In this document: positions 1,302-48,425 of the stretch, one piece after another
How positions within the stretch are numbered: the first letter of the stretch is position 1
How the letters are laid out: every line of letters starts with the position of its first letter
Source of the DNA: Candidatus Campbellbacteria bacterium
GTDB lineage: Bacteria; Patescibacteriota; Minisyncoccia; Phycocordibacterales; EsbW-18
Direction: 5' to 3'
Assembly: GCA_024653945.1 (NCBI GenBank)
Contig: JANLIT010000002.1
Location: 80,255 to 144,254, forward strand
DNA: 64,000 bases
The notes under the pieces: generated by a model
What the model was told of the DNA's origin: nothing
Databases searched by the model: none
What the model saw: only the letters and a program-made list of their open reading frames with translations
Program-made: the position numbers and the translations under genes

Positions 1302-1373
1302 TATACAATCATTTAATTTTCGGTCACTGAAAGCGACCGTTGCCGCCGCAAGGTGGTGTTTTTGTTTTGTGTG

Positions 1374-1444
1374 TGCGGGATGCCGGAATCGGACCGGCGA
1401 CACCAGTTTGGAAAACTGGAGTTATGCCACTTAACTAATCCCGC
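1374..1444 (-). tRNA. tRNA-Gly (anticodon TCC)
   Basis: On the reverse complement the fold is: acceptor GCGGGAT/ATCCCGC; D-arm GTTA-AGTGGCA-TAAC; anticodon stem CCAGT/ACTGG with loop TTTCCAA (anticodon UCC); T-arm GCCGG-TCCGATT-CCGGC; discriminator A. CCA is not encoded. Confidence 0.75.
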
Positions 1445-1566
1445 CTTCGCTGCGCTTCGGCGGGTAAACCCGCCAGACAATATCCGAACAATACCTACTC
1501 AATGCACAAGCAACACGTAGAAGCATGGTACCAAAAAATTGAGAAACGACAACGCCTACCTACGCA

Positions 1567-1598
1567 GACGCGCCCGCCTCGTATGAGGTGGGCGCGTC
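1567..1598. terminator. 14-bp GC-rich hairpin downstream of the minus-strand acidic ORF
   Basis: Stem GACGCGCCCGCCTC/GAGGTGGGCGCGTC with loop GTAT. No U-run follows. Confidence 0.3.
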
Positions 1599-1622
1599 AA
1601 TCAAGAGTATGTAAAACGTGCA

Positions 1623-1784
1623 CTACTCAGCCGATGAGCCGTCAGCATCTGATTCATCCTCGTCCGCACCTTCTCCATCTTCACCAACCTCAGGTGCCTC
1701 ATCCTCGGGGTCGTTCTCAAGAGGCGTTGCCGCAGGACTTTCATCACCATCTGTTGGAAGTGTAATATCGTCTAAATCTGACAT
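1623..1784 (-). CDS. Small, highly acidic hypothetical protein (53 aa)
   Basis: Translated by hand from the minus strand as MSDLDDITLPTDGDESPAATPLENDPEDEAPEVGEDGEGADEDESDADGSSAE. It falls below the ORF-track length cutoff. Overlapping plus-strand ORFs look like low-complexity artefacts. Confidence 0.35.
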   Translation of the reverse strand: MSDLDDITLPTDGDESPAATPLENDPEDEAPEVGEDGEGADEDESDADGSSAE

Positions 1785-1829
1785 ATATACAATAGGTTAA
1801 TTGGCAATGGTATCCGCATGGTGCGAATT

Positions 1830-1849
1830 CCTGCCTGCCGGCAGGCAGG
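1830..1849. repeat. Perfect 20-bp GC palindrome CCTGCCTGCCGGCAGGCAGG, copy 1 of 2 (26 bp shared with 6636-6655 in inverted orientation)
   Basis: Exact match to 6636-6655, with shared flank AATT-palindrome-CG on opposite sides. It lies 43 bp upstream of the acidic ORF start. Confidence 0.6.
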
Positions 1850-1946
1850 CGCATGAGTATAGCAATGTGTCTGTGTTTGTCAACCAAAATCACCACCATG
1901 TTGCATCAGGGTAATTTTATGCGCCCTTATTTTCTTTATTTTTTAT

Positions 1947-2003
1947 CCCGTTAGAGAATATTTCAATACAACGTCTTGTGTGTCACCCAAGTTCTCTAAC
2001 GGG
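1947..2003. repeat. MITE-like inverted-repeat element, copy a (57 bp)
   Basis: Termini CCCGTTAGAGAA ... TTCTCTAACGGG. Flanked by TTTAT and ATTTAT. Ends 11 nt 3' of the stop of the DoxX-like gene. Confidence 0.55.
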
Positions 2004-2014
2004 ATTTATTACAT

Positions 2015-2395
2015 CTATCGAAACCACTCACGTAGTGTTCGTGGCCACGACAGCATCAACAAAAGTGCGAGAGGGGCTCCCCAGTTTGCAAATCGTTCAA
2101 TGAAATCCCAGATTGATTCTCCAACAATTGGACGAAGAAGTGCGGTCCAAAATCCCCACAACACTGCCCACAACAACACAACGCGAATTGGTTTGAGAAG
2201 AACAACAAGCGCAACAAACATATCAGCAACACCAATCAACATAAGAAGCGTTATTGCAGTACCGAGGTCAGCACCAGTTAATTTTTGTATCCAACCGAGC
2301 CACTGTTCTTTTCCATCAAGGGCTAACATACCATGACCAATAAATTCTCCAGCAACCGCAATTCGCAACACCCACTGAATAAGTTTTGTATTCAT
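2015..2395 (-). CDS. DoxX-like small integral membrane protein
   Basis: The ~127-aa product has 3-4 predicted TM helices (GHGMLAL...LIGVADMFVALVVLL...LWAVLWGFW). The start is taken at MNTKLIQ, whose ATG lies in the left flank of MITE copy b. The ORF track extends to 2443. Confidence 0.45.
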   Translation of the reverse strand: MNTKLIQWVLRIAVAGEFIGHGMLALDGKEQWLGWIQKLTGADLGTAITLLMLIGVADMFVALVVLLKPIRVVLLWAVLWGFWTALLRPIVGESIWDFIERFANWGAPLALLLMLSWPRTLREWFR

Positions 2396-2512
2396 CCCGT
2401 TTAGAGGCAGGTCGCGGTCATTGAAAATTTCCGAAACCTGCAAATTATTCTAGTAAAACAACTACTCATTATCCACCATACAATCCCGGAAGCGACCGCG
2501 GCCTCTAACGGG
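2396..2512. repeat. MITE-like inverted-repeat element, copy b (117 bp), with a perfect 6-bp flanking direct repeat ATTCAT
   Basis: Termini CCCGTTTAGAGGCAGGTCGCGGTC ... GACCGCGGCCTCTAACGGG form a ~22-bp imperfect inverted repeat. ATTCAT sits at 2390-2395 and again at 2513-2518. The left copy supplies the ATG of the DoxX-like gene. Confidence 0.6.
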
Positions 2513-2565
2513 ATTCATGTACTAAAAGTATTAAAAATAAACTACCACACCCAGTGTAGCCTTTC

Positions 2566-2931
2566 TTATTTTTTCTTCCTAGACACTGTGTGAATTGCTT
2601 TTAACACCCACTCTGTAAGCACTTCCCTATCTTCAAGCACGTCTGTGGGAACTTCATAATAGTTTTTCAGCACCTGCTCCTTGCTTGGACGAAAACAATC
2701 CATACCTACGTCAATAAATTTCTGTTTACTTTCGTTATCAGTTTTTACATACAGCACGTTATCAGAAATAATCGCAAAAAATATCCCCTCAGCATACAAA
2801 CCAAAACCACCAAACATTTTTCGTGCGGTTACGTCTGGAATAGCCATAAGCTGATCCAGCACAAAGTCTTTAAATGATTCGTCCACAAGTGTCGGGGCGC
2901 CGAGAATCGGACTCGGTCTATCTGCTCCCAA
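2566..2931 (-). CDS. TfoX/Sxy N-terminal-domain protein (competence-regulator family)
   Basis: KMFGGFGLYAEGIFFAIISDNVLYVKTD matches the TfoX_N hallmark (F.G.GL....fa.i....LYlk.d). Confidence 0.65.
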   Translation of the reverse strand: MGADRPSPILGAPTLVDESFKDFVLDQLMAIPDVTARKMFGGFGLYAEGIFFAIISDNVLYVKTDNESKQKFIDVGMDCFRPSKEQVLKNYYEVPTDVLEDREVLTEWVLKAIHTVSRKKK

Positions 2932-2996
2932 AGCAGACGTACTACCGGTATACTACGCCCCGTAACAAAAACAACAATATCATGTCTATACTGATT

Positions 2997-3401
2997 TTAA
3001 TAGACCCTTTCTTGTTTTATATCATTTTTTCTTTCTTCATCGTGCAATATTCGATGACAATTTGCACAAACAACTTCACATTTATTTATTTCCGACTTAA
3101 TACGCGAGAGACCGACCGCACGACGAAATGTTCCGACTGTAAATAATTTATCTTTTCCATTTTTGTGATGGAAATCAAGAACTCTTGGATCTCCAACTCC
3201 GCACCTACTACACCCTTTTTGTTGTTTGTATTCTAGAATTAATTGATAATAACGATTAATAAGCATTTGTTTTGTAATACGGTAACAATCGCGACACTTT
3301 CTGCGCCTGTACACTTTTTTCTCAGTCGTTAGAGCAACCCCAAAGAAGGACTCTGGGAGCGATTTTCCACAATATTTACAAACTTTTTCGCACTTTTTCA
3401 T
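2997..3401 (-). CDS. HNH endonuclease
   Basis: Cys-rich N-terminus plus DFHHKNGKDK...CEVVCANCHRILH, the HNH motif (His-Asn-His with Zn-binding Cys pairs). Confidence 0.8.
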   Translation of the reverse strand: MKKCEKVCKYCGKSLPESFFGVALTTEKKVYRRRKCRDCYRITKQMLINRYYQLILEYKQQKGCSRCGVGDPRVLDFHHKNGKDKLFTVGTFRRAVGLSRIKSEINKCEVVCANCHRILHDEERKNDIKQERVY

Positions 3402-3459
3402 GTCCCAATCCTAGCGCATCAAGATAAATTTGGGATAAAGTAAAGTATCCCAAATTTTT

Positions 3460-3530
3460 CGGGCCGTCGTATAGTGGCAGTACACAAGGCTGGGGGTCTT
3501 GTAGTGAGAGTTCGATTCTCTCCGGCCCGA
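3460..3530 (+). tRNA. tRNA-Pro (anticodon GGG)
   Basis: Acceptor CGGGCCG/CGGCCCG; D-arm GTAT-AGTGGCA-GTAC; anticodon stem CAAGG/TCTTG with loop CTGGGGG; T-arm GAGAG-TTCGATT-CTCTC; discriminator A followed by CC. Confidence 0.75.
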
Positions 3531-3538
3531 CCGTAGTT

Positions 3539-3958
3539 CTAAAGGACATTCTCAATGAAGAGTGTATGAGCTGTTTTGTCCTTTAGATTAAGTCGAATTG
3601 CCACAACATCTACCTGATACCGTGTTTCACGTGAAATATGTTTCTCAACTAGGTATGTCTGAATTGCCCTAGAAAGTCGCTCGAGCTTTTCACGCGTAAC
3701 GTGTTCCTCAGGTCTGATCATCGAGGTTAAACCTTGATAACCTGTTTCACGTGAAACGACACCGTTCCCTGTTTCGCATGAAACACATTTAACTTCAACA
3801 AATCTCAAAACTTTATTCTTTTGGGCAATAATATCTATCTCTCCCCATTTCTTTAGATAGTGTCTTTCTGTAATCTTAAAACCTCGTTTCACAAGAAACA
3901 GACACGCTAATTCTTCTCCTATTTTGCCTATTTTGATGTGTTTTGGGTCATTTTTCAT
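3539..3958 (-). CDS. YraN/UPF0102-family endonuclease-like protein carrying in-frame palindromic repeat insertions
   Basis: N-terminus GKIGEELACLFLVKRGFKI...WGEIDIIAQKNKVLRFVEVK and C-terminus RYQVDVVAI match UPF0102. The central part contains the repeated peptide VSRET, encoded by GTTTCACGTGAAAC palindromes. Confidence 0.6.
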   Translation of the reverse strand: MKNDPKHIKIGKIGEELACLFLVKRGFKITERHYLKKWGEIDIIAQKNKVLRFVEVKCVSCETGNGVVSRETGYQGLTSMIRPEEHVTREKLERLSRAIQTYLVEKHISRETRYQVDVVAIRLNLKDKTAHTLFIENVL

Positions 3959-4008
3959 GGAAAATAAGATTTCATGTGTAACAAATACCTATATGTTTCA
4001 CGTGAAAC
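3624..4008. repeat. Array of five copies of the 14-bp palindrome GTTTCACGTGAAAC (two exact, three 1-2 mismatch)
   Basis: Copies at 3624-3637 (GTTTCACGTGAAAT), 3744-3757 (exact), 3771-3784 (GTTTCGCATGAAAC), 3886-3899 (GTTTCACAAGAAAC) and 3995-4008 (exact, in the promoter region upstream of the YraN-like start). Confidence 0.7.
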
Positions 4009-4061
4009 ACTTATATCGGACATTATTAGAGACAAATTCTATAATATGGCTTAACTGGGCT

Positions 4062-4118
4062 ATTTTACACTGATATTTGCCTTTATTTTACACATGTCCA
4101 ATTGCCTGTCTTTTACAC
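4062..4118. repeat. Three iteron-like direct repeats (A)TTTTACAC spaced 23-25 bp apart
   Basis: ctATTTTACACtgatatttgcc, ttATTTTACACatgtccaattgcc and tcTTTTACACatatcc. They lie in the divergent region between the YraN-like gene and the tRNA cluster. Confidence 0.4.
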
Positions 4119-4285
4119 ATATCCCCGTTGTTGTCCACAGTTTTAGCCATTTTACCCTTTTAAAATAAAGTTTTCTTAAAGACATGGTTGTTTTGTCTTT
4201 ATAAAAATTTTATCTATTATCTTTTGGTCGAGAGTTGGTTAGAATTTGCTAAATTTTTTTATCTGATTTGCTCACAAAAAGATTA

Positions 4286-4317
4286 TTGACATACAAATTA
4301 TCGTATATTGTTATAAA
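4286..4317 (+). promoter_or_regulatory. Candidate promoter for the tRNA-Gly/tRNA-Arg transcription unit
   Basis: TTGACA at 4286-4291, with TGtTATAAA-like extended -10 elements downstream. The spacing is ambiguous. Confidence 0.3.
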
Positions 4318-4388
4318 CATATGGTAAATTCAGTGAAAATAGATATACTGTTCTTTGCGGTGGACTCGTCCGCCGAACAACGTGCAAG

Positions 4389-4459
4389 GCGGGCATGGTT
4401 TAGTGGTAGAACACGTCCTTGCCAAGGACGAGACGGGAGTTCGATTCTCCCTGCCCGCA
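4389..4459 (+). tRNA. tRNA-Gly (anticodon GCC)
   Basis: Acceptor GCGGGCA/TGCCCGC; D-arm GTTT-AGTGGTA-GAAC; anticodon stem CGTCC/GGACG with loop TTGCCAA; T-arm GGGAG-TTCGATT-CTCCC; discriminator A. Confidence 0.8.
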
Positions 4460-4498
4460 CACAGAAACAGGTTATAATAAATAAAGCTTATTAATGTT

Positions 4499-4570
4499 GC
4501 TCCCGTGGTGAAATGGATATCATGACAGGCTTCGAACCTGTTGTTGGGGGTTCGAATCCCTCCGGGAGCA
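4499..4570 (+). tRNA. tRNA-Arg (anticodon TCG)
   Basis: Acceptor GCTCCCG/CGGGAGC; D-arm GTGA-AATGGATA-TCAT; anticodon stem ACAGG/CCTGT with loop CTTCGAA; T-arm GGGGG-TTCGAAT-CCCTC; discriminator A. Confidence 0.7.
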
Positions 4571-4592
4571 CAGAGTGTAATACAATGTTTTC

Positions 4593-32007: not shown

Positions 32008-32808
32008 ATGGCACACCGTGCAAAAAAAGAACTTGGACAAAATTTTTTGAAATCTAAACTTGCGATTAGCAAAATCGTTGAAGTGGCTTCCTTATCCGCA
32101 ACAGACACCGTTCTTGAAATTGGACCAGGCAAGGGAGCACTTACACGAGCACTCCTTGATACTGGATGCACTGTTATTGCAATTGAAAAAGATGGTGAAC
32201 TTATTGTATTGTTGCAAAAAACTTTTGCAGAAGAGATTGCATCAAAAAAACTAACACTGATTCAAGGCGACATTCGCACTGTTGATTTTTCTCATTACCT
32301 GCTACAAGCTACGAGCTACAAGCTCATTGCCAACATTCCCTACTACATCACGGGAGAAATTTTAGAATTATTTCTTGAACACGGACCACAACCAGAACGC
32401 ATTGTGGTACTTGTACAAAAAGAAGTTGCACAACGAATTGTAGCACGTGATAAAAAAGAAAGTATTCTCTCACTGTCGGTGAAAGCGTATGGCACACCGA
32501 AGATTGTGATGAATGTGTCAAAGAAATATTTTTCTCCTGCACCAAAAGTTGATTCGGCCGTGTTGTGCATTTCAGATATTTCAAAAAAGAAATTTGCAGG
32601 TGGTGATGAAAAGAAATTTTTTACACTCGTCAAAGCTGGCTTCGCACACAAACGAAAACAACTCGTCCCGAATCTTGCGAGCCTGGTACCAAAAGAAACG
32701 CTTTCGCGTTTCTTGACGGAGCACGGACACTCCGCGAGGGAGCGTGCGGAGGAATTGTCGGTTGATGATTGGCTTGCGTTATCTCAAACTACAAATCCGA
32801 CCCTGTAA
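32008..32808 (+). CDS. rsmA: 16S rRNA (adenine1518-N6/adenine1519-N6)-dimethyltransferase
   Basis: GQNFL, SAM-binding VLEIGPGKGALT, and NIPY motifs. The start is taken at MAHRAKKELGQNFL. Confidence 0.85.
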   Translation: MAHRAKKELGQNFLKSKLAISKIVEVASLSATDTVLEIGPGKGALTRALLDTGCTVIAIEKDGELIVLLQKTFAEEIASKKLTLIQGDIRTVDFSHYLLQATSYKLIANIPYYITGEILELFLEHGPQPERIVVLVQKEVAQRIVARDKKESILSLSVKAYGTPKIVMNVSKKYFSPAPKVDSAVLCISDISKKKFAGGDEKKFFTLVKAGFAHKRKQLVPNLASLVPKETLSRFLTEHGHSARERAEELSVDDWLALSQTTNPTL

Positions 32809-33922
32809 TAAATGATATAACCCCCATGGTTGGAATAAGAAGTGGCTCACCTTCGTATGTGATATAACAGGTTTGGGTTCCTGGTACATACAATCCTATT
32901 GTCTTCGACGCAAAGGGCATATTCCAGTTCGCATATCCTTGAGCATATGTGTACCCGACCCATGCAGGTGTGAGCATGCCCGGGGGAGCAATGACGATTG
33001 CCCATGTGTCGCTGTAATAACAGAAGAAACGATAATAAATAGTTCCACCAAAAGGAAGTAGGCTGACGGCAAGTGCTTCTTTTGGTTTTAAAATAGTAAC
33101 AACCGACGTTAAGAAGCGAAAAAGGAGGTTCCCTGTTTTTTGTGCTTGAGGAATCGCCCAAGTAATGTCGTCCGAGGACTGTATTAATTCAATAATATCT
33201 TTTTTTGAGTCTTTACGAATTTGGTTCTTAACAGCATCTTTTGTTTTTGAATCCATGTCATTCAAATATCCTCCCTCATCCAAAAAGGCAATGAGTATTT
33301 CAACATTGTTTTCATTTTGATTTTGTACGAGATCCATCACCGCCCTTGTCGTCGGCGGACTCGCAATGGTTTCTGGGACAATCTCCGTATCCTTTCTTGC
33401 CATCAACATCTCTGTATCAGAAATAACCACCAAATTCATGCGCGACACAATACTGGTAAATAGTTCTTTTGTTTTTGCATCTGGGCCCACTTCAGCAGGT
33501 ATAGTACTGCCAGTGCCCATATCTTCAATGACAATAGTAGGTGTATCACTTATAAACGCACGCGTACTTGGACCAAAAAAACCGGTTCCTGACACTAATC
33601 CAGCTGGTATAAGTATTTCTTCGCGATACAGCTCCTGATACCTCCGTACCGCATCAGCGGTCAGCACACCATAATACGACGTTTCATACCCCGGAGACCC
33701 GTCGCCTGCTTCCGCAACATGCGTTACTGTGTTTTGATTCAAAAGTATTTGTAACTGCCACACATCACCACCAGAGTCGCCGAGACGCAGGTTGCGGGAA
33801 AACGTTTCCGCAGAAGCACGGGCGGACAGCAACAAAAAAAATACACCGATAAAAAAACTGGCGCCCAATACCAGACGTGCGCTGGAGGGCGTGCCCCAAA
33901 AAGCCTTTTTGTGCGTGGACAT
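32789..33922 (-). CDS. Secreted protein with an N-terminal peptidoglycan-binding (PG_binding_1-like) domain
   Basis: Signal anchor. GDSGGDVWQLQILLN...GYFGPSTR is the PG-binding repeat. The C-terminal domain is unknown. Confidence 0.5.
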   Translation of the reverse strand: MSTHKKAFWGTPSSARLVLGASFFIGVFFLLLSARASAETFSRNLRLGDSGGDVWQLQILLNQNTVTHVAEAGDGSPGYETSYYGVLTADAVRRYQELYREEILIPAGLVSGTGFFGPSTRAFISDTPTIVIEDMGTGSTIPAEVGPDAKTKELFTSIVSRMNLVVISDTEMLMARKDTEIVPETIASPPTTRAVMDLVQNQNENNVEILIAFLDEGGYLNDMDSKTKDAVKNQIRKDSKKDIIELIQSSDDITWAIPQAQKTGNLLFRFLTSVVTILKPKEALAVSLLPFGGTIYYRFFCYYSDTWAIVIAPPGMLTPAWVGYTYAQGYANWNMPFASKTIGLYVPGTQTCYITYEGEPLLIPTMGVISFITGSDL

Positions 33923-38050: not shown

Positions 38051-40435
38051 ATGAAGCAAATCAAAAAGTGTGTAACTCTAAAAAATATGTTCACGTGGGG
38101 TAAAAAAAATCCAAGTCCAGAACTTTGCCAAGCGACATTATCTCGCGGGGCAAAAAGCGCGCAAAAAAAGTGCTGGATTAAGTTTGTGTTGCCACTTCTG
38201 TTTGTGGTTGCTGTTCTTACCACATTCTCCGTACCAACCCAGGCACACGCATACGAATGTGACCCGCCACGAGAAGGTTACGTGGACATGCACATGGGTT
38301 CTGGGTGTGTACTTCTTCCAGACAATCCTAACCTTGAGGGGACGGGCGCAGAGGACAAAGAAAGTGGTGGCTTTTGGGATATCATAACAAAGCCAAGAAT
38401 CCTTGTTGCGTGGATACTTTATATTGTTCTTGAAATACTTGGAATACTTCTTGCGGTAAGTGGTGCTCTTTTAGATTTCAGTATTCAGTTCTCCATAGTA
38501 AACATGAGTCAGTTTATTTCCGGAACAAACGGAATAAATGAGGGTTGGACAATTATCCGAGACCTCATGAATATTGTCTTTGTGTTTGCACTTCTCTTTG
38601 TGGGAATTAATACCATACTTGGTTCATGGTCTAGTTCATCTTTCAACACAAAACTCATTCCCAAAATTCTCTTGGCCGCCCTGTTTATCAACTTCAGCAT
38701 GATGATTACCAAGGTTGTTATAGACACATCAAACATTCTCACTCTTGAACTTTATGTTGCTACGAAAAAAATCTCTGAACCCGTAGCAGGTGTTACACCT
38801 CCTGAGGGTATTAACATGAATACTACGGGACTTGCGGGGGGGATAATGAACAGCCTGCACATGACCTCTTTTCTAAATGGAAAACTCACAAAAGAGGGGA
38901 GGGCTGTCGCAATACCCGACTCGGCAGATAGAAGTTTGTTGACCAATGTGACCATGGGAATCATTGTTGTGCTCGTTGCCATGTTTATTTTTCTCATCAT
39001 GGCATTTATGTTCTTGGCGCGAATGGTTATTTTTATTATTTTGATAGTTACCTCACCAATAGCATTTATGGGGGGGCTTATTCCTCAGCTCAAATCTCAA
39101 GCGGATAAGTGGTGGGAAGCGTTGTGGGGTCAAGCATTTTTTGCTCCAATCTTTTTTGCAATGCTCTTAGTGGTATTCAAAATACTTAATGACCCCCATT
39201 TTCAAGATTTTGCAGCCCGTCCCCTTGATCCTAATGGTACTGGTATTGAGGGTCTTGATTTATCAAACTTTGTTGCTGGCAGCGCTGAAGTTATTGTTAA
39301 ATATATCATCGTCATCTACCTCCTTGTTACTGCACTCATTGTTGCTAAAAAAGTTTCAAGTGATGCAGGAAAGGGTGCTGCTGGTTTGGGTTCAAAACTG
39401 GCGGGTGGCGCAATATTTGGAGGCGGAGCACTTCTCGCCCGACAAACACTTGGACGCGCCGGAGAAGGGTTGGCAAAATCTGGGAGGGTTGGAAGGTTGG
39501 CAGAGTCAACAAACCCATTCATAAAACGTGTTGGCCAATCACTCTCTGCGGCAGGAAACTGGACACAAAAGGCAAGTTTTGATACACGGGGTCTCAAAGC
39601 TGCCGCTAGCCTTGATGCTGGAAAAGCTGCTGGTGAAGGTGGTCTGATTGGTAGACGCGAAGCACGAAGTAAGGGGAAGGAGGAGCGTCTTACTATGTAC
39701 GCAAAGAACAGAGCAATAGCAGGACAAGAGGTGGCAGTACGAGAAGCCGAGGCAGATGTTTCGAAGAAAACGAAAGAGGGCGCAAGTGACGATGACATAA
39801 AGAAGGCAAATGACAATCTTGCTATACAGAAAAGCGCGCTTGTTGAAATGAGGGGTGGCCCATCAAAAGAGCGCAGAGAACTTGCTGAAGCAAGTGCAAA
39901 GCTTACTCTTGCAGAAGAAACAGAGCTTAACACTACAATGAAAATAATTGCACTGCGAAAAGAATATATTGAAGACCTTGAAAACCGAAGAGACATTGCA
40001 AAAGAGGGTTCAGATGAGAAGAGGAAGCTTGAAGAGGAAGTAACAGACGCCAAGAAAAACCTTGAGGAATACAAGAACGGTATAAAAGGTGCGGATGGCA
40101 CGGTGACTGGGGCTAAATCAAAAAACATATTGGATGTGATTGGACTAATGGAGACACGGGGCAAAATTGAAAAAGCCCAAAAAACCACCACCGCAACGGC
40201 CCTACGAAAATTGGGTGAGGAGTATGCTACTTCAGTAGTTGTAGCAACACATGATGCGGGAGTAAGAGTAATACGAAAAGGACTAGAGGACTCAGAAAAA
40301 GGTAGTCTCGCCAAAGAAATCGCAAAGTTGAAGGCGGAAAAAAAGGACGCGAAAGAACCTGAAGTGAAGACACCGGCACCGGCGGCGCCGGGGGGACCAG
40401 TGCCACAGCTAGGAAACCCACACAGCCCAGAATAG
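38051..40435 (+). CDS. VirB6/TrbL-like polytopic membrane protein with a long charged coiled-coil C-terminus (794 aa)
   Basis: 6-7 predicted TM helices in the first 450 aa. The K/E-rich C-terminal half. Its position beside the VirB4 and PrgI-like genes supports the call. Confidence 0.4.
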   Translation: MKQIKKCVTLKNMFTWGKKNPSPELCQATLSRGAKSAQKKCWIKFVLPLLFVVAVLTTFSVPTQAHAYECDPPREGYVDMHMGSGCVLLPDNPNLEGTGAEDKESGGFWDIITKPRILVAWILYIVLEILGILLAVSGALLDFSIQFSIVNMSQFISGTNGINEGWTIIRDLMNIVFVFALLFVGINTILGSWSSSSFNTKLIPKILLAALFINFSMMITKVVIDTSNILTLELYVATKKISEPVAGVTPPEGINMNTTGLAGGIMNSLHMTSFLNGKLTKEGRAVAIPDSADRSLLTNVTMGIIVVLVAMFIFLIMAFMFLARMVIFIILIVTSPIAFMGGLIPQLKSQADKWWEALWGQAFFAPIFFAMLLVVFKILNDPHFQDFAARPLDPNGTGIEGLDLSNFVAGSAEVIVKYIIVIYLLVTALIVAKKVSSDAGKGAAGLGSKLAGGAIFGGGALLARQTLGRAGEGLAKSGRVGRLAESTNPFIKRVGQSLSAAGNWTQKASFDTRGLKAAASLDAGKAAGEGGLIGRREARSKGKEERLTMYAKNRAIAGQEVAVREAEADVSKKTKEGASDDDIKKANDNLAIQKSALVEMRGGPSKERRELAEASAKLTLAEETELNTTMKIIALRKEYIEDLENRRDIAKEGSDEKRKLEEEVTDAKKNLEEYKNGIKGADGTVTGAKSKNILDVIGLMETRGKIEKAQKTTTATALRKLGEEYATSVVVATHDAGVRVIRKGLEDSEKGSLAKEIAKLKAEKKDAKEPEVKTPAPAAPGGPVPQLGNPHSPE

Positions 40436-41196: not shown

Positions 41197-41559
41197 GTGA
41201 ACAAAAACTCACCGGAAACATTTCATCAAAAACTTCAAACATTGATGTACTCTTTTGTGCACAGTGTCTATGATGCAACTAAAACATTCCCCGGAGACGA
41301 GATTTTTGGTGTAACAAGTCAACTGCGTCGAGCAACACTATCTGTTGCCCTAAATTATACAGAGGGATACGCTCGTCATGGTAAAAGGGAGCTTGCTCAT
41401 TTTCTTAAGATTTCTTATGGCTCACTCAAAGAATCCATGTATCTTGTGCAGTTTGCTAAAGACAGAGAGTGGATATCTCTAGAAACACATCAAAAACTGT
41501 ACCAAATGGGGGATGAGATTGGTAAAATGTTGTGGTCAAGTTTTTCACATATGACATAA
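41197..41559 (+). CDS. Four-helix-bundle protein (23S rRNA intervening-sequence protein family)
   Basis: FHQKLQTLMYSFVHSVYDATKTFPGDEIFGVTSQLRRATLSVALNYTEGYAR...LKISYGSLKESMYLVQFAKD matches the TIGR02436-type family. Confidence 0.6.
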   Translation: MNKNSPETFHQKLQTLMYSFVHSVYDATKTFPGDEIFGVTSQLRRATLSVALNYTEGYARHGKRELAHFLKISYGSLKESMYLVQFAKDREWISLETHQKLYQMGDEIGKMLWSSFSHMT

Positions 41560-41605
41560 GATATATAACGTGTATCATGTAGCATATAATGCACAACAAA
41601 AATAT

Positions 41606-41633
41606 GTTACATGTTTCGTGTTACATGTTTCGT
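41606..41633 (+). repeat. Tandem 14-bp direct repeat GTTACATGTTTCGT x2, immediately upstream of the PrgI-like gene
   Basis: 41606-41619 and 41620-41633 are identical. Related CATGTAGC/CATGTAAC motifs cluster at 41109-41150 and 41576-41590, flanking the four-helix-bundle gene. Confidence 0.55.
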
Positions 41634-41641
41634 GTCCTACC

Positions 41642-42064
41642 ATGAAATTTGAAGTCCCTCAATTCATTGACATAGAAGACAAGGTGTTCGGACCACTCAC
41701 CTTTAAACAGTTCATCTATCTTGCGGGTAGTGCTGGTCTTTCGGTGGTTATTTGGGTTTTTCTACCACTTCTTCTTGCCATTCCACTTATTGGTGTTGTT
41801 GTCGGACTTGGTGTTGCGCTTGCATTCTATAAAGTGAACAACGAACCATTTATTGCTCTCATTGAGTCAGCGCTTCGATACTCTCTCGGGCATAAACTGT
41901 ATATTTGGAAAAAAATGCCGAAAAAAGTTACCAAAGAAAAAGAAGATGGCACACAGGAGTCCGGTATGCTTGTTCCCCGCATCGCAGATAGTAAGTTGCG
42001 CGACCTTGCGTGGAGTTTGGATGTACACGATTCACTCAATGGGGGCGGGGAATCACCACTGTAA
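41642..42064 (+). CDS. PrgI-like (VirB3-analog) small membrane protein
   Basis: MKFEVPQFIDIEDKVFGPLTFKQFIYLAGSAGLSVVIWVFLPLLLAIPLIGVVVGL shows the Gram-positive-type PrgI pattern: N-terminal amphipathic segment, GPLT, two TM helices. Confidence 0.4.
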   Translation: MKFEVPQFIDIEDKVFGPLTFKQFIYLAGSAGLSVVIWVFLPLLLAIPLIGVVVGLGVALAFYKVNNEPFIALIESALRYSLGHKLYIWKKMPKKVTKEKEDGTQESGMLVPRIADSKLRDLAWSLDVHDSLNGGGESPL

Positions 42065-42105
42065 GTGTTGGTGAGACGCACTTTCTCGGCTACAATATAT
42101 ACATT

Positions 42106-42777
42106 ATGGCCCAACCAAAAGCCGAATCGACACAGGCATTCGTGCCCATCAAAGAAATTCGTAGTGGTGTTGTTGTACTCAAAGATGGGTCTCTTCGTGC
42201 TGTCCTTCTTGCATCATCTCTCAACTTTGCTCTCAAATCTGAAGATGAGCAATCTGCCATCATCATGCAATTTCAAAACATGTTGAACTCTATTGAGTTT
42301 CCCATTCAGATACTCGTGCAATCCCGCAGACTTGATATTCGCCCATACATTGCCTTGCTAGAAAACCAACTAAAGGAACAAACAATTGACCTCATTAAGG
42401 TGCAAACACGTGAGTACATTGAATTTGTGAAAGGATTCACCGAGAATGTGAGCATCATGACAAAATATTTTTATATTGTGGTGCCCTACACTGGCGCAAT
42501 TGTGAGTGCCTCAAAGGGCGGTGTTCTCGGTGGACTCAAGGGGCTCTTTGGAAAAAAGAATCGTACCAATTCCGAACAAAAACTTACCGCTTTTGAAGAG
42601 AGTCGCAGTCAGCTCGAACAACGCGTTACCGCTGTAACACAAAACCTTGCGCGTACGGGCATTCGCTCAACACAACTAAGAACTGAAGAGCTTGTTGAGT
42701 TGTACTACAAAATGTTTAATCCTGGCGACTCAGAAAAACCTATTGTTCTGCAAGGACTTCAGGGGGTTCAAAAATAA
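42106..42777 (+). CDS. virB4: VirB4/TraC-family ATPase, N-terminal domain, encoded as a separate ORF (split gene or pseudogene)
   Basis: AFVPIKEIRSGVVVLKDGSLRAVLLASSLNFALKSEDEQSAIIMQFQNMLNSIEFPIQILVQSRRLDI is the canonical VirB4 N-terminus. TAA at 42775-42777 lies 3 nt before the ATG of the ATPase ORF. Confidence 0.55.
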   Translation: MAQPKAESTQAFVPIKEIRSGVVVLKDGSLRAVLLASSLNFALKSEDEQSAIIMQFQNMLNSIEFPIQILVQSRRLDIRPYIALLENQLKEQTIDLIKVQTREYIEFVKGFTENVSIMTKYFYIVVPYTGAIVSASKGGVLGGLKGLFGKKNRTNSEQKLTAFEESRSQLEQRVTAVTQNLARTGIRSTQLRTEELVELYYKMFNPGDSEKPIVLQGLQGVQK

Positions 42778-42780
42778 TAT

Positions 42781-44709
42781 ATGGGAATTCTTGATTTTAT
42801 AAAAGGAAAACCAAAAAAGGCGGCACAAATTACCCCCGTGCTTCCAAAGGATATTTACGAGGCTGGTGTGCTTGAACTCCAAGACGTTATTGCACCATCT
42901 GCTCTCAAAATAACACCCCGCGCACTCAACCTTGGGGACAAGGTGGTGCGAACGTTCTTTGCTATTTCATACCCACGCTTTCTTCCAGACAATTGGCTTT
43001 CACCAGTTATCAACATGGACAAGGTGTTTGATCTCTCTATCTCTATTATTCCTGTTGATACCGCACAAGTGCTCAAAGAATTCAGAAAGCGTGTTGCAGA
43101 AGTACAAAGCCAAATTCACATGCGCGAAGATAAGGGAATGGTGCGTGACCCAATGCTTGATAGTGCCTATGAAAATCTTGAATCACTTCGTGACCAACTA
43201 CAACAAGCAACTGAGAAACTATTTGATGTTGGACTGTATATCTCCATCTATTCAGAAAATGAGAGTGACCTTGATAAAACAGAATCAGAAATTCGCTCAC
43301 TTCTTGAATCACGTCTTATTTATCTCAAACCCGCGCTCTTCCAACAAGAGCAGGGATTCAAGAGCGTGCTTCCTGTGGGAACCGACGAACTTGGTATCCA
43401 CAGCAAACTCAACACAGCACCTCTCTCAAGCTTTTTTCCATTTGTGTCATTTGATCTTTCATCAAATCAGGGAATTCTCTATGGTGTGAACCGCCACAAC
43501 TCTGGACTCATTCTGTTTGACCGATTCTCTATGCCAAACTACAACTCAGTTATGTTTGCAACATCAGGGGCAGGAAAAAGTTACGCAACGAAGTTGGAAA
43601 TTCTTCGTACGCTCATGTTTGACACCGAAGTTATTGTAATTGACCCAGAGCGTGAGTATGAATTTATGGTTGATGCTATGGGTGGACGCTATTTTGATAT
43701 TTCACTTACATCTCAACACCACATCAATCCCTTTGACCTACCTCCAGTGCGCGAAGATGAAACCCCAGCAAACGTATTGCGTTCAAACATTATTACACTT
43801 GTGGGACTCTTCCGTATTATGTTTGGTGGGCTCACGCCAGAAGAGGATGCCATTATTGACCGAGCTATTACTGAAGTGTATGCACTCAAAGATATTACTG
43901 GAGAACACGATTTTGCGGGTGTTGAGCCACCCCTTTTGTCTGATTTTGAACTCGTGCTTGCGGGTATGAACGGTGGAGAATCGCTCGTACAACGACTTTC
44001 AAAGTACACCAAAGGAACGTGGTCTGGCTTCATCAACCAACCAACTAACGTGGATATCAATAAAAAATTTATTGTGTTCTCTGTACGTGACATGGAAGAG
44101 GAGCTCAAGCCGGTTGCTATGTATTTGATTACACACTATATCTGGAGTGCAGTACGCCGTACACTCAAAAAGCGCCTCCTTGTGGTGGACGAGGCATGGC
44201 TCATGATGAAGGATGAAAATACCGCATCGTTGTTGTTTGGGTTGGCAAAACGTGGACGAAAGTACTTCCTCGGCATTGCCACCATCACGCAGGATGTTGG
44301 GGACTTCCTACGTTCCCCATACGGACTTCCAATTATCACCAACTCTTCAATTCAGTTGCTCTTAAAACAGTCTCCGTCGTCTATTGATCTCGTGCAACAA
44401 ACATTTAACCTCACCGACGAGGAAAAGTTCTTGCTTCTTGAATCTGAGCGCGGGGAGGGCATTTTCTTTGCTGGACTCAAGCACGTGGCAATAAAAAGTA
44501 TTGCATCGTATACCGAAGACCAAATTATTACCTCGGACCCGTCACAACTTCTTGCACTCAAAAAATCACGAGAAGAATTACAGGCAACAAAAGAGAGTGA
44601 CGTGGTAAAAACAAGTGATGTTGAACCTCTTGCAGAAAAAGTATCACAATCTGAACAACACAAAAACGAGCTTCTCACCCAGGCTGTGGATATGAAAAAC
44701 GTAGAATAA
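42781..44709 (+). CDS. virB4: VirB4/TraC/CagE-family type IV secretion ATPase (C-terminal two thirds)
   Basis: Walker A ATSGAGKS, Walker B LLVVDEAW, and conserved FDxxGxxY and ATQ motifs. Confidence 0.8.
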   Translation: MGILDFIKGKPKKAAQITPVLPKDIYEAGVLELQDVIAPSALKITPRALNLGDKVVRTFFAISYPRFLPDNWLSPVINMDKVFDLSISIIPVDTAQVLKEFRKRVAEVQSQIHMREDKGMVRDPMLDSAYENLESLRDQLQQATEKLFDVGLYISIYSENESDLDKTESEIRSLLESRLIYLKPALFQQEQGFKSVLPVGTDELGIHSKLNTAPLSSFFPFVSFDLSSNQGILYGVNRHNSGLILFDRFSMPNYNSVMFATSGAGKSYATKLEILRTLMFDTEVIVIDPEREYEFMVDAMGGRYFDISLTSQHHINPFDLPPVREDETPANVLRSNIITLVGLFRIMFGGLTPEEDAIIDRAITEVYALKDITGEHDFAGVEPPLLSDFELVLAGMNGGESLVQRLSKYTKGTWSGFINQPTNVDINKKFIVFSVRDMEEELKPVAMYLITHYIWSAVRRTLKKRLLVVDEAWLMMKDENTASLLFGLAKRGRKYFLGIATITQDVGDFLRSPYGLPIITNSSIQLLLKQSPSSIDLVQQTFNLTDEEKFLLLESERGEGIFFAGLKHVAIKSIASYTEDQIITSDPSQLLALKKSREELQATKESDVVKTSDVEPLAEKVSQSEQHKNELLTQAVDMKNVE

Positions 44710-44716
44710 CCCGGCT

Positions 44717-45520
44717 ATGTCAGAAAATGATTCTCAAGAAAATAAAAAACCGAAACGAATTGATTCTACAACACGCTACTTGTTGATTGGAACCGCAATT
44801 ATTTTTGATCTTATCAGCATTATCCCTGTTGTTGGACAGTTCTTGGCCATTGGAGGGGCGGGTATCACTTTTTATATTTGGTTCAAGACACTCGGCGTAT
44901 CATTCATAAGCCCAAAACGAATTGTAACCACCGCCGTTGAGTATATTGGCGAAGCAATTCCTGTTGTAAGTGCTCTTCCCCTTATAACAACTGGAACAAT
45001 TATTATGATTGTGTTAACTGACATTGAGGACAAAACGGGAATCGGTTTGGCAAGTTTGGCAGCTGGAAAAATGTCAAAAGGGAAAGTGTCCACAACAGCA
45101 CAACGAACAGAAAGAAAGGCTGCACGTAGAGCGGCCGATCCCGAACGAGCAACTCGGGCACGAGAACGCCTAGCCAAAATGAAAGAAAAAAAGGTTGGTA
45201 TAGCGACAAAAACGAATCCTCAGGGAATGATGAGGGATTTAAAGCCAACCGAAAAGTACAATTATGGAGATGGTGGGGCAAAGGTGACATTTAAAAACCC
45301 TTGGCAGAAATTAAAGTTTAGAGTAGGAAAACCACAAATAAAGGCGACTGGTGGAGAGGAGTGGGAGCAAAACCCTGCAAGTGAACGCCTACGACTCATT
45401 CGAGGTGGTGGCCAGGGAATAAGTGCACCTAGTCAGCCACTATCAAAGTACAACGAGCCTCTCACCGACCATTCTCCTCCAACTGGTCCTGTGGAAAACA
45501 AAGAAAAAGGAACCGCTTAA
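44717..45520 (+). CDS. Hypothetical membrane protein (267 aa) in the T4SS-like cluster
   Basis: Three hydrophobic helices in the N-terminal 110 aa. Charged C-terminus. Confidence 0.4.
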   Translation: MSENDSQENKKPKRIDSTTRYLLIGTAIIFDLISIIPVVGQFLAIGGAGITFYIWFKTLGVSFISPKRIVTTAVEYIGEAIPVVSALPLITTGTIIMIVLTDIEDKTGIGLASLAAGKMSKGKVSTTAQRTERKAARRAADPERATRARERLAKMKEKKVGIATKTNPQGMMRDLKPTEKYNYGDGGAKVTFKNPWQKLKFRVGKPQIKATGGEEWEQNPASERLRLIRGGGQGISAPSQPLSKYNEPLTDHSPPTGPVENKEKGTA

Positions 45521-45547: not shown

Positions 45548-46261
45548 ATGACAACGCTTCAAAAAACAGCCATCCTTGTCTTTCTTTTTCTTTTTGGTGC
45601 TGTTGCCAACGCCCAAATAAACGTTACTACAGAAATTATCCGACCAACAGTTGAAATGATATGGGAAGCGCATTCTTATATTCCACCTTTTTATAAAGGA
45701 AAAGCACTCTATCCGATTGGTGGGGAAGTAACCGTCTTAGCGCTTCCTCCTGCTTCGTTGGGAAATCCAAACGCTCTCACCTACACATGGAAACGAGATG
45801 GGCAAGTGCAGGGGTCTCTTTCTGGTGTTGGAAAAAGTTCTTTTAGTTTCTCTGGTTCACAATTTGGAGACATACCACTCGTTGTTGTTGAGGTTTCTAG
45901 CGGAAACGCGAGAGCTGTTGGGGCGCTTCAAATTCAACAAATAAATCCAGTCATTAGGTTCTATGAAAATAAACCACTGGAAGGTGTTGCTCTTGAACAC
46001 GCACTTCCTCAAACTCTCACAACGACAAAAAAGGACATAGCACTTGAGGTATACCCGTATTTTTTCTCAGCAAATACTAACAACGACAGCTCGCTTGCAT
46101 ACTCGTGGTCAGCAAATGGAAAAAAAATTCTTGATGCAAAAGGTCCAAGTATTGTTGTACAAAGTGATGAACCTCGTTCCATCATCATGTTACTTTCCAT
46201 GAATCATGTTGCTCAAATTCTTCAACGAGCAAGTACTAGTATTCTCGTTACCTTTGAATAG
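45548..46261 (+). CDS. Secreted hypothetical protein (237 aa)
   Basis: Signal peptide LQKTAILVFLFLFGAVANA. SD AAAGG. Confidence 0.4.
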   Translation: MTTLQKTAILVFLFLFGAVANAQINVTTEIIRPTVEMIWEAHSYIPPFYKGKALYPIGGEVTVLALPPASLGNPNALTYTWKRDGQVQGSLSGVGKSSFSFSGSQFGDIPLVVVEVSSGNARAVGALQIQQINPVIRFYENKPLEGVALEHALPQTLTTTKKDIALEVYPYFFSANTNNDSSLAYSWSANGKKILDAKGPSIVVQSDEPRSIIMLLSMNHVAQILQRASTSILVTFE

Positions 46262-46262
46262 T

Positions 46263-47168
46263 ATGCGTATACTCACTAGAAAAAATGTTGTCTTTGTTTT
46301 AACTCTTGTCGTTTTCCTTGTACCCATCTTTTTTATTCATGCCGCAACAGAACCATACACACTTCTTGTCAATGATATTCCGGGTCTTGGAGAGACGGTA
46401 ACACCTGGTGCGGGAGGTGGGGTGGGTGCATATCTCAATACCATTTTTAGAATAGGTCTGGGTATTGCCGTAACACTTGCCATTCTTATGTTTGTCTACA
46501 ACGGAGTCATCTACATGACATCCGACATTGTTGGAAACAAAGAGGGTGCAAAAAAAGCATTCTTGAGTATTTTAGGAGGGCTCGTGCTTGTATTTAGCTC
46601 TGTGCTTATTCTTGAGGTCATCAATCCCCAACTTGTTAACTTTGGAATCTTTGAAACACTAGGAGCAATTGAACCCGCACCAGGTGGCGGGGGTGGGGGC
46701 GGAACGCCTCCTCCCCCTGGAGGGGATGGAACAACCGACCCCGCCATGGAAACCAGTGCTCGTGCATATTTAGATGCTAACCATATCACCGTAAATCAAG
46801 CCGCCTGTACTCCTGGACAAGGGGCTCCAAGTTGTATAAACGTTGGTGACATGTCGACACCTGTTGCACATCAACTTGTCGCTTTGGCTGAAGCCTGTGG
46901 ATGCAACATAAACATCACAGGTGGAACAGAGCGGGGTCACACAACACACGGACCAGACAAACCTATGTATGATTTTAGTAAAAAAATAATAAACGGCCAG
47001 ACACCGCCTATTACCACCTACCTTGAGGGCCTGCAAAAAGTGAAGGTGGTCGGTGGCGGACAAGTATATACTGATGGAACGAGTGAGTTCTGGGATGAGC
47101 CCGCAAATCCGGGTAGCAATTGGGGTTCACACTGGCATGCGTGTATTGGAACAACGTGTCGTTTTTAA
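46263..47168 (+). CDS. Pilin-like (TrbC/VirB2-like double-TM) N-terminus fused to a Cys/His-rich C-terminal domain
   Basis: Signal anchor plus a second hydrophobic segment (FRIGLGIAVTLAILMFVYNG...SILGGLVLVFSSVLILEVI). G/P-rich linker. C-terminus with CTPGQGAPSC, ACGC, HTTHG, HWHAC resembles a zinc-hydrolase fold. Confidence 0.35.
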   Translation: MRILTRKNVVFVLTLVVFLVPIFFIHAATEPYTLLVNDIPGLGETVTPGAGGGVGAYLNTIFRIGLGIAVTLAILMFVYNGVIYMTSDIVGNKEGAKKAFLSILGGLVLVFSSVLILEVINPQLVNFGIFETLGAIEPAPGGGGGGGTPPPPGGDGTTDPAMETSARAYLDANHITVNQAACTPGQGAPSCINVGDMSTPVAHQLVALAEACGCNINITGGTERGHTTHGPDKPMYDFSKKIINGQTPPITTYLEGLQKVKVVGGGQVYTDGTSEFWDEPANPGSNWGSHWHACIGTTCRF

Positions 47169-47180
47169 TAAATATAGTGT

Positions 47181-48425
47181 ATGAAAAAAATTGTTATTTT
47201 TATAATCGTATTTGTTGTCGCTCTTTTTTTGGCAGGGAGTGTGTGGTGGTTTTTTACGAAAAATGATTTAGCAACGACGGGAGACGGTACACAACAGGGA
47301 ACTCAAACATTTAACCCGTTTGGACTTTTTGGAGACATCACACCAATACGTCCCAGCGCAACGAGCACAGACGGACAAACACCCGACACTGGTGTACAAC
47401 AAAAAAAGTTTCTTACCGCTATTTCTGAAAAAGTAGTTGCTGGTTCCACATTTGCCATCATTACACATGGCACCTCTACCGATATGTTGGTGCGTTATGT
47501 TGAACGAGAAACAGGACACATTTTTGACTACTCACTTTCAACGGGGCTTACGACTCGTATTTCAAACACTACCGTTCCTCGCGTTCGTGAGGCATTGTGG
47601 GGAAACAACGCTTCAACCGTTGCGTTACGCTATCTTACTGAGGACGGTTCTATAGAAACATTTTTAGGAACCATTGCAACATCAAGCGCAAATTTGGACA
47701 ACGGATCACTTCTATCTGGATCATTCCTGCCAAAAGACATTGTATCTCTTTCTATTCACCCAACACTTCCAAAAACTTTTTATCTTACAAAAACAAATGC
47801 TGGTGGTGTTGGGTATGTTTTGAGTGAAAAAATTACAAAAAGTGTGTTTTTACACCCTTTTTCACAATGGCAAACCTCGTGGAGTGGAGCATCGTCCGTT
47901 CTTTTAACAACGGCACCGTCCTCTCAATCTAACGGAAACGCTTTCTTGCTTAACACAACAACGAAGACCTTTGACCGCATCGCCAGCAGCACGACCGCAT
48001 TAACAGCACACCCTTCTCCAGACGGATTGCGTGTTCTTTTTGGATCCGTAGGACAAGCCGGTATGCGACTCTTTATATATGATGTTATGAAAAAACAAAG
48101 AACCGCACTTTCTTTCAGCACGCTTCCAGAAAAATGTGCGTGGGTAGGGGCGGGAACCCTGTATTGCGCCATTCCTGATATTCAAATTCAAACAGGGCTT
48201 CCTGATGTGTGGTATCAAGGTGTTGTGTCGTTTTCTGACGAGCTTTGGAAAATTGATACACAAACAGGAAATGCAACATTCATTTTCGACCCACACGACA
48301 CAATTTCCGGTGGTGCCGACATGATTGATATAGGGGTGAGTGCTGGTGGAGGGTTTCTTTCATTCACAAATAAAAAAGACGGCCGGCTGTGGCTCGTTGA
48401 TTTTTCCGCCCAACCCGTAGAATAA
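47181..48425 (+). CDS. Hypothetical N-terminally anchored protein (414 aa), possibly beta-propeller-like
   Basis: N-terminal TM helix. Ser/Thr-rich. Last gene of the cluster before the bidirectional terminator. Confidence 0.4.
   Translation: MKKIVIFIIVFVVALFLAGSVWWFFTKNDLATTGDGTQQGTQTFNPFGLFGDITPIRPSATSTDGQTPDTGVQQKKFLTAISEKVVAGSTFAIITHGTSTDMLVRYVERETGHIFDYSLSTGLTTRISNTTVPRVREALWGNNASTVALRYLTEDGSIETFLGTIATSSANLDNGSLLSGSFLPKDIVSLSIHPTLPKTFYLTKTNAGGVGYVLSEKITKSVFLHPFSQWQTSWSGASSVLLTTAPSSQSNGNAFLLNTTTKTFDRIASSTTALTAHPSPDGLRVLFGSVGQAGMRLFIYDVMKKQRTALSFSTLPEKCAWVGAGTLYCAIPDIQIQTGLPDVWYQGVVSFSDELWKIDTQTGNATFIFDPHDTISGGADMIDIGVSAGGGFLSFTNKKDGRLWLVDFSAQPVE

Follow-up and report, generated by a model that had tools for sequence, protein, structure and literature searches.

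How does a type IV secretion system (T4SS) get through a cell wall, be it the producer's own or that of a host? In Patescibacteria these systems are widespread, lie at the replication origin and are mostly without relaxase and coupling protein; in one genetically tractable species the system is essential for growth on the host, and its role is unexplained (PMC10633639, PMC12102498, PMC12857230). According to published surveys, most genomes with VirB2-like pilins do not encode the wall hydrolase VirB1 (PMC12102498). The question is posed by a gene located in a 64,000-nucleotide stretch of DNA from a Candidatus Campbellbacteria bacterium (contig JANLIT010000002.1, positions 80,255 to 144,254; here called the window). 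At positions 46263..47168 of the window, within a T4SS gene cluster, it codes for a protein that joins a VirB2-like pilin module to a Cys/His-rich C-terminal domain (C-domain) with likeness to zinc peptidases. On balance, we lean towards the view that this protein is a T4SS subunit of Patescibacteria built from two modules. An earlier note on this DNA, made from the sequence alone, had interpreted the product as a pilin-like N-terminus fused to a putative metal hydrolase. This interpretation is partly supported in that it was right in outline, while its enzymology remains a prediction from sequence.

A pilin gene with two modules

The gene and the elements of its product are as follows (all on the plus strand; aa, amino acids; pLDDT, predicted local distance difference test score).

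46263..47168: bimodular T4SS pilin gene, 301 aa plus stop codon (list of open reading frames, sequence)
46263..46343: predicted Sec-type signal peptide, aa 1-27 (hydropathy segment 2-20; AlphaFold helix 6-23, then a low-confidence stretch)
46422..46622: pilin module, two-helix hairpin, aa 54-120 (PF18895, NF045849, AlphaFold)
46662..46733: flexible Gly/Pro-rich linker, aa 134-157, containing GGGGGGGTPPPPGG (pLDDT below 50 over aa 134-153)
46734..47165: C-terminal alpha/beta domain, predicted to be extracytoplasmic, a putative LAS-like zinc peptidase, aa 158-301 (AlphaFold, family search, hhalign)
46917..46973: motif 1, T219-G-G-T-E223-R-G-H226-T-T-H229-G-P-D-K-P-M-Y-D237 (family conservation; MepA/MepK alignment)
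47130..47138: motif 2, H290-W-H292 in the last beta-strand (H290 in 149 and H292 in 147 of 150 family representatives)

The ATG of the pilin gene lies 1 nt past the stop codon of the upstream gene, and its product is 100% identical to the NCBI entry 'MAG: pilin [Candidatus Campbellbacteria bacterium]'. A longer open reading frame starting at 46206 was rejected as the gene because five homologues (44-62% identity) all align from the later Met, that of the 46263 frame.

Three hydrophobic segments were found by hydropathy analysis (aa 2-20, 57-75 and 96-114). The first of them is indeed present where the earlier note had placed a signal anchor; however, its make-up, with a basic n-region (MRILTRK), a hydrophobic core and the sequence ...FFIHA|A, fits better with a cleavable signal peptide, the predicted cleavage site being located after FFIHA. 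Once this peptide is removed, the mature protein would retain two membrane helices. These form a hairpin in the AlphaFold2 model built from a 150-sequence alignment (helices 54-86 and 90-120, pLDDT above 90). Pfam family PF18895 (T4SS_pilin) matches aa 56-119 with E=2e-5, and the match covers 64 of the 71 positions of the profile; at 25.0 bits it stays slightly below the gathering score of 26.6 bits, and the same family is listed for close homologues in precomputed Pfam annotation. A weak match was also obtained with NCBIfam NF045849, 'Mbov_0395 pilin-like conjugal transfer protein' (E=2.4e-4). Among 150 representatives of the C-domain family described below, PF18895 is found in 92 at E<=1e-3 (best value 8e-14), and 126 have at least two hydrophobic segments ahead of the C-domain. 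Hydrophobic segments, family match and modelled hairpin thus bear out the pilin-like topology that the earlier note had read from the N-terminus.

A class III signal peptide, that is, a short leader ending in Gly followed by a hydrophobic helix with Glu5, is absent from the N-terminus (MRILTRKNVVFVLTLVVFLVPIFFIHAATE), and neither Pfam N_methyl nor another type IV pilin family matched the protein. Foldseek searches with the full-length model yielded no solved pilin structure. Histidine kinases appeared among the matches (E~0.1, template modelling (TM) score <0.25, root mean square deviation ~19 Å) and were discarded as look-alikes in layout, sharing a helical hairpin plus an alpha/beta domain.

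The pilin module is followed by the sequence PAPGGGGGGGTPPPPGGDG at about aa 140-157, which is disordered in the AlphaFold model and corresponds to the linker expected from the earlier note. Across the family, the 30 residues preceding the C-domain average 44% G/P/T/S. Because the protein carries a signal peptide and two membrane helices, both ends of the mature form are predicted to lie outside the membrane, which would make the C-domain extracytoplasmic, on a tether of ~25 residues. The conserved Cys pairs of the C-domain are consistent with such a location.

Structure and conserved residues of the C-domain

AlphaFold2 modelling of the C-domain with an 86-sequence alignment resulted in a confident alpha/beta structure (pLDDT 92.9; predicted TM score 0.87) and not in a beta-sandwich of the adhesin type. 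A separate Cys/His-rich C-terminal domain, as suggested in the earlier note, is thereby substantiated. The first half of the model consists of a helix, a short strand, a long loop with C182 and C191, a helix and a strand (INITG). In the second half, a loop with E223, H226 and H229 is followed by a strand with D237, a helix, three strands leading to E279 and the strand HWHAC. All motifs noted previously are present: paired cysteines (C182/C191, C212/C214 and C294/C299), HxxH (H226-T-T-H229) and HWH (residues 290-292).

Conservation was counted over 150 representatives, which share only 23-46% identity with the window protein. All of them have C182, C191, E223 and D237. At least 97% retain G220, G221, H226, H229, E279, H290 and H292, and at least 90% retain R167, L170, T192 and C212. 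The family consensus reads TGGTE-x-GH-x-TH-GPG-x-P-x-VD-L … F-x-x-E … HWHV, a pattern as would be expected of an active site and not of motifs arising by chance. Two family members have HWD instead of HWH along with H-x3-H-x6-D instead of H-x2-H-x7-D, a change which probably represents one evolutionary event. The co-variation of HWD with H-x6-D, seen in these two members and also in the Amycolatopsis proteins described below, suggests that the two motifs belong to one site.

Several known enzyme classes were considered and rejected. For HNH/ββα-Me nucleases, motif order and secondary structure do not agree, with no ββα-Me/HNH-like helix following the HWH strand; Amidase_2, Amidase_3 and deaminases were dismissed on the same two grounds. 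M23 peptidases have an all-beta fold as opposed to the alpha/beta fold of the C-domain.

A large family, mostly fused to pilins

The extent of the family was determined by an exhaustive search with a profile of aa 154-301, built from six close homologues, against 1.84 billion cluster representatives (clusters at 50% identity). This search returned 1359 representatives at E<=1e-3, of which 481 reached E<=1e-10. The best 150 are mostly proteins of 260-320 aa with the C-domain at the extreme C-terminus, and those without a pilin-type fusion are mostly fragments. Fusion of a pilin to the C-domain thus occurs widely and is the norm in gene clusters of this kind. The earlier note had regarded such an architecture as unusual. 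That judgement holds for the literature we found, where the pilins are described and the fusion is not; it does not hold in nature.

Other, rarer arrangements point to an independent, mobile module. In two proteins an SLT lytic transglycosylase domain takes the place of the pilin (P0016, locus L009 2748-3896, 48.5 bits; P0028, locus L013 1-1032, 34.5 bits). The P0016 gene stands in a cluster of small genes, where it comes after a gene of 61 aa that matches Flp1_like weakly. A 785-aa non-pilin protein ending in the C-domain (P0056, L015 9802-12159) is encoded next to alr (alanine racemase), a MurA-family gene and a YkuD/Peptidase_S11 gene; for its first 640 aa, no Pfam family gave a match. A 3D/DPBB domain suspected in P0056 and in P0050 was not confirmed by Pfam. 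Finally, a later profile search disclosed proteins of 162 aa that consist of a signal peptide and the C-domain, one of these stand-alone forms being the NCBI entry 'hypothetical protein [Amycolatopsis sp.]'. Those on two Amycolatopsis-like contigs (P0302 and P0300; L024 8001-8489 and L026 8001-8489) show the motif GH-x6-H-x6-D … HWD. On both contigs the next gene, on the opposite strand, belongs to the YidC family (60KD_IMP); in the loci of Patescibacteria one gene intervenes before yidC. The C-domain is hence an independent module that is present outside T4SS and outside Patescibacteria.

In the sources, proteins with a C-domain are labelled 'pilin' or 'hypothetical protein'. Searches of the C-domain and 86 family members against Pfam, NCBIfam and PHROG gave no consistent family match; a single match to VanY (E 0.21) was taken as noise. 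PDB sequence searches with C-domain profiles produced no supported match either. UDP-glucose 4-epimerase, which came up with the six-sequence profile (E 0.003), covered 50 residues outside the motifs and was lost with an 86-sequence profile, and we consider it a chance match. The C-domain was also without tblastn matches in 50,697 phage records.

Similarity to LAS zinc peptidases

The superfamily of lysostaphin / D-Ala-D-Ala peptidase / hedgehog (LAS) proteins has two defining features, a zinc motif H-x(3-6)-D…H and a motif H-x-H, the first His of the latter being catalytic (PMC4087270). Comparison of the C-domain profile with single sequences of three E. coli LAS enzymes revealed that each of them aligned best at its own zinc motif. 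Specifically, S-Y-H133-…-D140 of MepK falls on H229…D237, GGRFNGGH110ASH113QTGLDVD120I of MepA on GGTERGH226TTH229GPDKPMYD237F, and S-E-W-W-H of DdpX on HWH. MepA H113A and MepK H133A are published as catalytically dead mutants. The second LAS motif, H-x-H, is present in the C-domain as H290-W-H292.

Profile comparison with hhalign pointed in the same direction. Against the MepA family, whose template alignment is shallow as the homologue search gave only close enterobacterial relatives, P was 0.0065 (100 co-linear columns), and a query of 184 sequences brought it to 0.0055; the two comparisons spanned 100-109 columns. In this alignment H226/H229/D237/H290/H292 are paired with H110/H113/D120/H209/H211, and HWHV lies on H209-M-H211-V. 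The score was reached by one of 200 column-shuffled templates (z about 4). An M15A set made up of MepK and eight phage 'peptidase M15' genes, trimmed of an irrelevant C-terminal tail in one phage protein, yielded P=0.08-0.03, a score that 6 of 150 shuffles attained; here ITGGTE aligns with I(T/N)SGYR and H…D with SxHxxGxAxD.

The C-domain shares with MepA (MEROPS M74, an E. coli murein DD/LD-endopeptidase) and with M15A/MepK the order of elements, i.e., a helix, a strand ending in GG(R/T)x, GHxxH...D, a helix, strands and HxH-V. Residues equivalent to H110, H113, D120, H209 and H211 of MepA are conserved, a Cys follows HxH in both proteins, and both MepA and, by prediction, the C-domain are extracytoplasmic. 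There are also differences: H-x7-D instead of x6, an invariant Glu in place of the Arg of SGYR, extra Cys pairs, the fusion to a pilin, a length much below that of MepA, and sequence and fold matches that stay below significance by standard thresholds. Taken together, the C-domain is probably a LAS-like metal-dependent peptidase. If this assignment holds, it would constitute a so far unrecognised member family of the LAS superfamily.

The T4SS gene cluster

The pilin gene takes the penultimate place in a row of genes that resembles an operon, and two genes separate it from the VirB4 gene. The other members of the row (all on the plus strand) are:

38051..40435: 794-aa polytopic membrane protein with ~9 hydrophobic segments (hydropathy only)
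41570-42064: PrgI/VirB3-like protein (Pfam PrgI, E=9e-10)
42010-42777: N-terminal part of VirB4, TraC-like (separate gene adjoining the P-loop ATPase gene)
42781-44709: VirB4 P-loop ATPase (P-loop_TraG, E=5e-23; NCBIfam CD1110-family VirB4, E=1e-108)
44717-45520: 267-aa protein with two transmembrane segments and a basic tail (no Pfam or NCBIfam family match)
45548-46261: 237-aa secreted protein (no Pfam or NCBIfam family match)
47181..48425: 414-aa N-terminally anchored protein, last gene of the cluster (weak Kelch match only)

The row ends against yidC-rnpA and dnaA-dnaN, with ksgA upstream. An identical gene order, likewise ending at yidC-rnpA / dnaA-dnaN, was found in L004, L005, L007 (as far as this contig reaches) and L011; L010 is too short to show the cluster. 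L004 is the complete 811-kb Campbellbacteria genome CP064977.1, whose homologue is 53% identical to the window protein, the value for L005 being 44%; L007 and L011 hold far more distant family members. A profile search of GTDB genomes with a narrow alignment led to one related locus. The cluster matches published T4SS of Patescibacteria, also in being situated at the replication origin (Quinonero-Coronel et al. 2025, PMC12102498).

With local hidden Markov models of both modules, no other pilin-module gene was detected in the 64-kb window or within 6-10 kb in the homologous loci. The fused gene is the only VirB2-like gene of this cluster type.

The 794-aa protein, for which Pfam and NCBIfam provided no family match, is probably VirB6/PrgH-like, as judged from its hydropathy; a gene of similar size occupies its position in homologous loci. 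VirB4 is split into two genes also in L004, L005 and L011, and the split is therefore a feature of the lineage and not a frameshift. Between VirB4 and the pilin gene, L004, L005, L007 and L011 have one or two genes whose sizes differ from locus to locus, and directly after the pilin gene all homologous T4SS loci of sufficient length have a gene of 399-433 aa. The products of 44717-45520, 45548-46261 and 47181-48425 are candidate pilus-associated or channel components. The gene just before that for PrgI, at 41197-41559, encodes a four-helix bundle (23S rRNA intervening-sequence protein / bAvd-like, E=4e-26); L004 has it as well, and L005 carries it on the opposite strand. Divergently oriented and just upstream of the T4SS row (32789-33922, minus strand) is a gene whose product, an anchored protein of 377 aa, matches PG_binding_1 weakly (E=4e-4) and may be another cell-wall-directed protein. 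Five tRNA genes are located at 1373-4571 of the window (Gly-TCC, Pro-TGG, Pro-GGG, Gly-GCC and Arg-TCG).

Proposed function

The explanation that we consider best, and to which we give somewhat more credence than doubt, is the following. Residues 28-133 would constitute the VirB2-like pilin of the system. After Sec export and cleavage of the signal peptide, its two hydrophobic helices would reside in the membrane as an N-out/C-out hairpin, the state from which T4SS pilins are recruited by the VirB4 machine. Residues 158-301 would be held outside the cytoplasmic membrane on the flexible linker of ~25 residues and act as a zinc-dependent LAS peptidase, closest to MepA and M15A. Putative metal ligands are H229, D237 and H292, and H290 could serve as the catalytic base, possibly together with E223/E279. 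The putative substrate is the peptide stems or cross-links of peptidoglycan. By means of the pilin module the enzyme would be kept at or within the T4SS assembly, such that the wall would be opened where the channel or pilus is built. This is the task of VirB1, which would here be done by an unrelated enzyme. The term 'VirB1-like' used in the earlier note is thus apt as a functional analogy; it fails as a statement of homology, VirB1 being an unrelated lytic transglycosylase. We favour the producer's own wall as the target, cut during assembly by the membrane-tethered enzyme; the host's wall is the bolder and more novel alternative.

A link to the cell wall is provided by the fusions to SLT, by the neighbourhood of the P0056 gene, and by the stand-alone secreted form in Amycolatopsis. 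Moreover, a peptidase fused to the pilin would explain why most Patescibacteria with VirB2-like pilins do not have a VirB1 homologue (PMC12102498).

A number of points weigh against this explanation. A metal hydrolase, possibly cell-wall-lytic as the earlier note put it, is the best-supported reading of the C-domain by virtue of motif conservation, LAS profiles and SLT fusions, yet Foldseek detected no significant fold match (best E 0.3 in PDB and 0.08 in BFVD). MepA (1tzp_A) is among the non-significant matches (PDB rank 32, E 4.6, TM score 0.24), as are three Peptidase M15A/M15 models with TM scores of 0.32-0.34. Searches of Pfam, NCBIfam, PHROG and PDB sequences, with HMMER for Pfam and PDB, yielded no supported match for the C-domain, HH probabilities are at most 7% (MepA 6-7%), the P values are moderate, and the M15A comparison misplaces the last motif. 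The spacing H229-x7-D237 exceeds the canonical x(3-6) by one residue; H-x6-D does occur in some relatives, namely the Amycolatopsis form and two family members. As to the biological role, nobody has to our knowledge demonstrated a T4SS pilus in these organisms, and packing could be difficult if each subunit bears a head of 16 kDa. An association of VirB1 homologues with VirB4 has been described for Paceibacteria (PMC12102498), and a separate hydrolase may for this reason exist elsewhere in the genome.

Alternative explanations

Among the competing explanations, the one that survives best, albeit as an unlikely one, keeps the enzyme and changes its target and assembly state: a T4SS pilus bearing peptidase heads on its surface or tip would attack the peptidoglycan of the host bacterium, opening its wall for attachment, feeding or transfer. 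As the cluster type contains a single VirB2-like gene, any pilus must use the fused protein, and the long flexible linker is conserved. The clusters are mostly without relaxase and coupling protein and thus do not serve classical conjugation (PMC12102498), T4SS and pilins of Patescibacteria are essential for epibiotic growth (PMC10633639), and modular type IV pilins illustrate that attaching a module with a function to a pilin is a strategy in use (PMC8179133). However, such a pilus has never been observed, a domain of 145 aa would have to be packed on each subunit, and stand-alone homologues in free-living Amycolatopsis imply roles unrelated to epibiosis. In its fullest form this idea would mean that the T4SS filament of many Patescibacteria is built solely from a peptidase-tethered subunit and works as a drill through the host wall, with the C-domain as a new LAS family that acts as a free secreted enzyme in actinomycetes; we regard this, too, as rather improbable.

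Somewhat less likely still is a head without catalytic function, i.e., a metal- or disulfide-stabilised adhesin or a receptor- or cell-wall-binding module. Compatible with this idea are the lack of significant similarity to any enzyme fold, the non-canonical H-x7-D spacing, the possibility that C182, C191, C212 and C214 form a structural site, and the mostly adhesive nature of modular pilins (PMC8179133). Yet His, Asp and Glu are near-invariant over 150 divergent representatives, which is typical of catalysis, whereas binding heads usually diversify. Furthermore, these residues align in register with LAS catalytic residues, and for a domain fused to SLT, a second lytic activity is a more plausible role than adhesion.

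We attach least weight to another hydrolase or toxin, whose catalytic site would act on a host protein, lipid or nucleic acid with a convergent or spurious LAS likeness: the LAS link is statistically modest (P 0.005-0.08), the C-domain is uncharacterised and Patescibacteria must scavenge many building blocks, but a ββα-Me/HNH-like helix after the HWH strand is absent, no toxin, nuclease or defence family matched, and both the fusion partner (SLT) and the adjacent genes (alr, murA, YkuD/S11) speak for the cell wall. The conservation pattern and the domain partners thus disfavour both the non-catalytic head and the hydrolase with another substrate, and a LAS-like peptidase tethered to the pilin, acting on the wall, remains our preferred explanation.

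Relation to known systems

The pilin module and the gene cluster as such are already known (PF18895; PMC12102498; PMC10633639; PMC12857230). With the VirB2-like pilins described for Patescibacteria or candidate phyla radiation bacteria (PF18895; PMC12102498; Wang et al. 2023, PMC10633639) the window protein has in common the signal peptide and two-helix hairpin, the vicinity of virB4, the chromosomal cluster by dnaA/dnaN/rnpA/ksgA, and the organism group. By contrast, the described pilins are short and single-module, often in arrays of 2-11 divergent copies, while the cluster studied here has one gene with a C-domain of 145 aa. Neither the fusion nor the C-domain is mentioned in PMC12102498, PMC10633639, PMC12857230 or other literature found in a limited search.

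VirB1 is a lytic transglycosylase, and the Gram-positive proteins PrgK, TcpG and TraG combine SLT with CHAP or NlpC-P60 domains. The role proposed here, local opening of the wall for a T4SS, is the same as that of these peptidoglycan hydrolases, and the SLT-fused relatives of the C-domain reproduce the two-enzyme layout of PrgK-type proteins. The window protein itself is not homologous to VirB1, has no SLT/lysozyme-like or CHAP domain, and would carry the enzyme on the pilin and not as a separate protein.

As for its overall design, the closest conceptual analogues are the modular type IV pilins such as PilB of Streptococcus sanguinis, in which a small pilin module presents a bulky functional module on a filament (PMC8179133). 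Most of these modules are adhesive and a few are peptidases (PMC8179133). Type IV pili are, however, a different filament system, whose pilins combine a class III signal peptide with a single N-terminal helix; both are absent here.

Significance

Our analysis draws attention to a large uncharacterised domain family without a Pfam entry, which comprises at least 1359 clusters (50% identity). If the peptidase assignment is correct, the fused enzyme would offer a concrete and testable answer to how the T4SS of these bacteria crosses a wall, whether their own or that of a host. It would likewise extend the idea of modular pilins from type IV pili to the pilins of T4SS.

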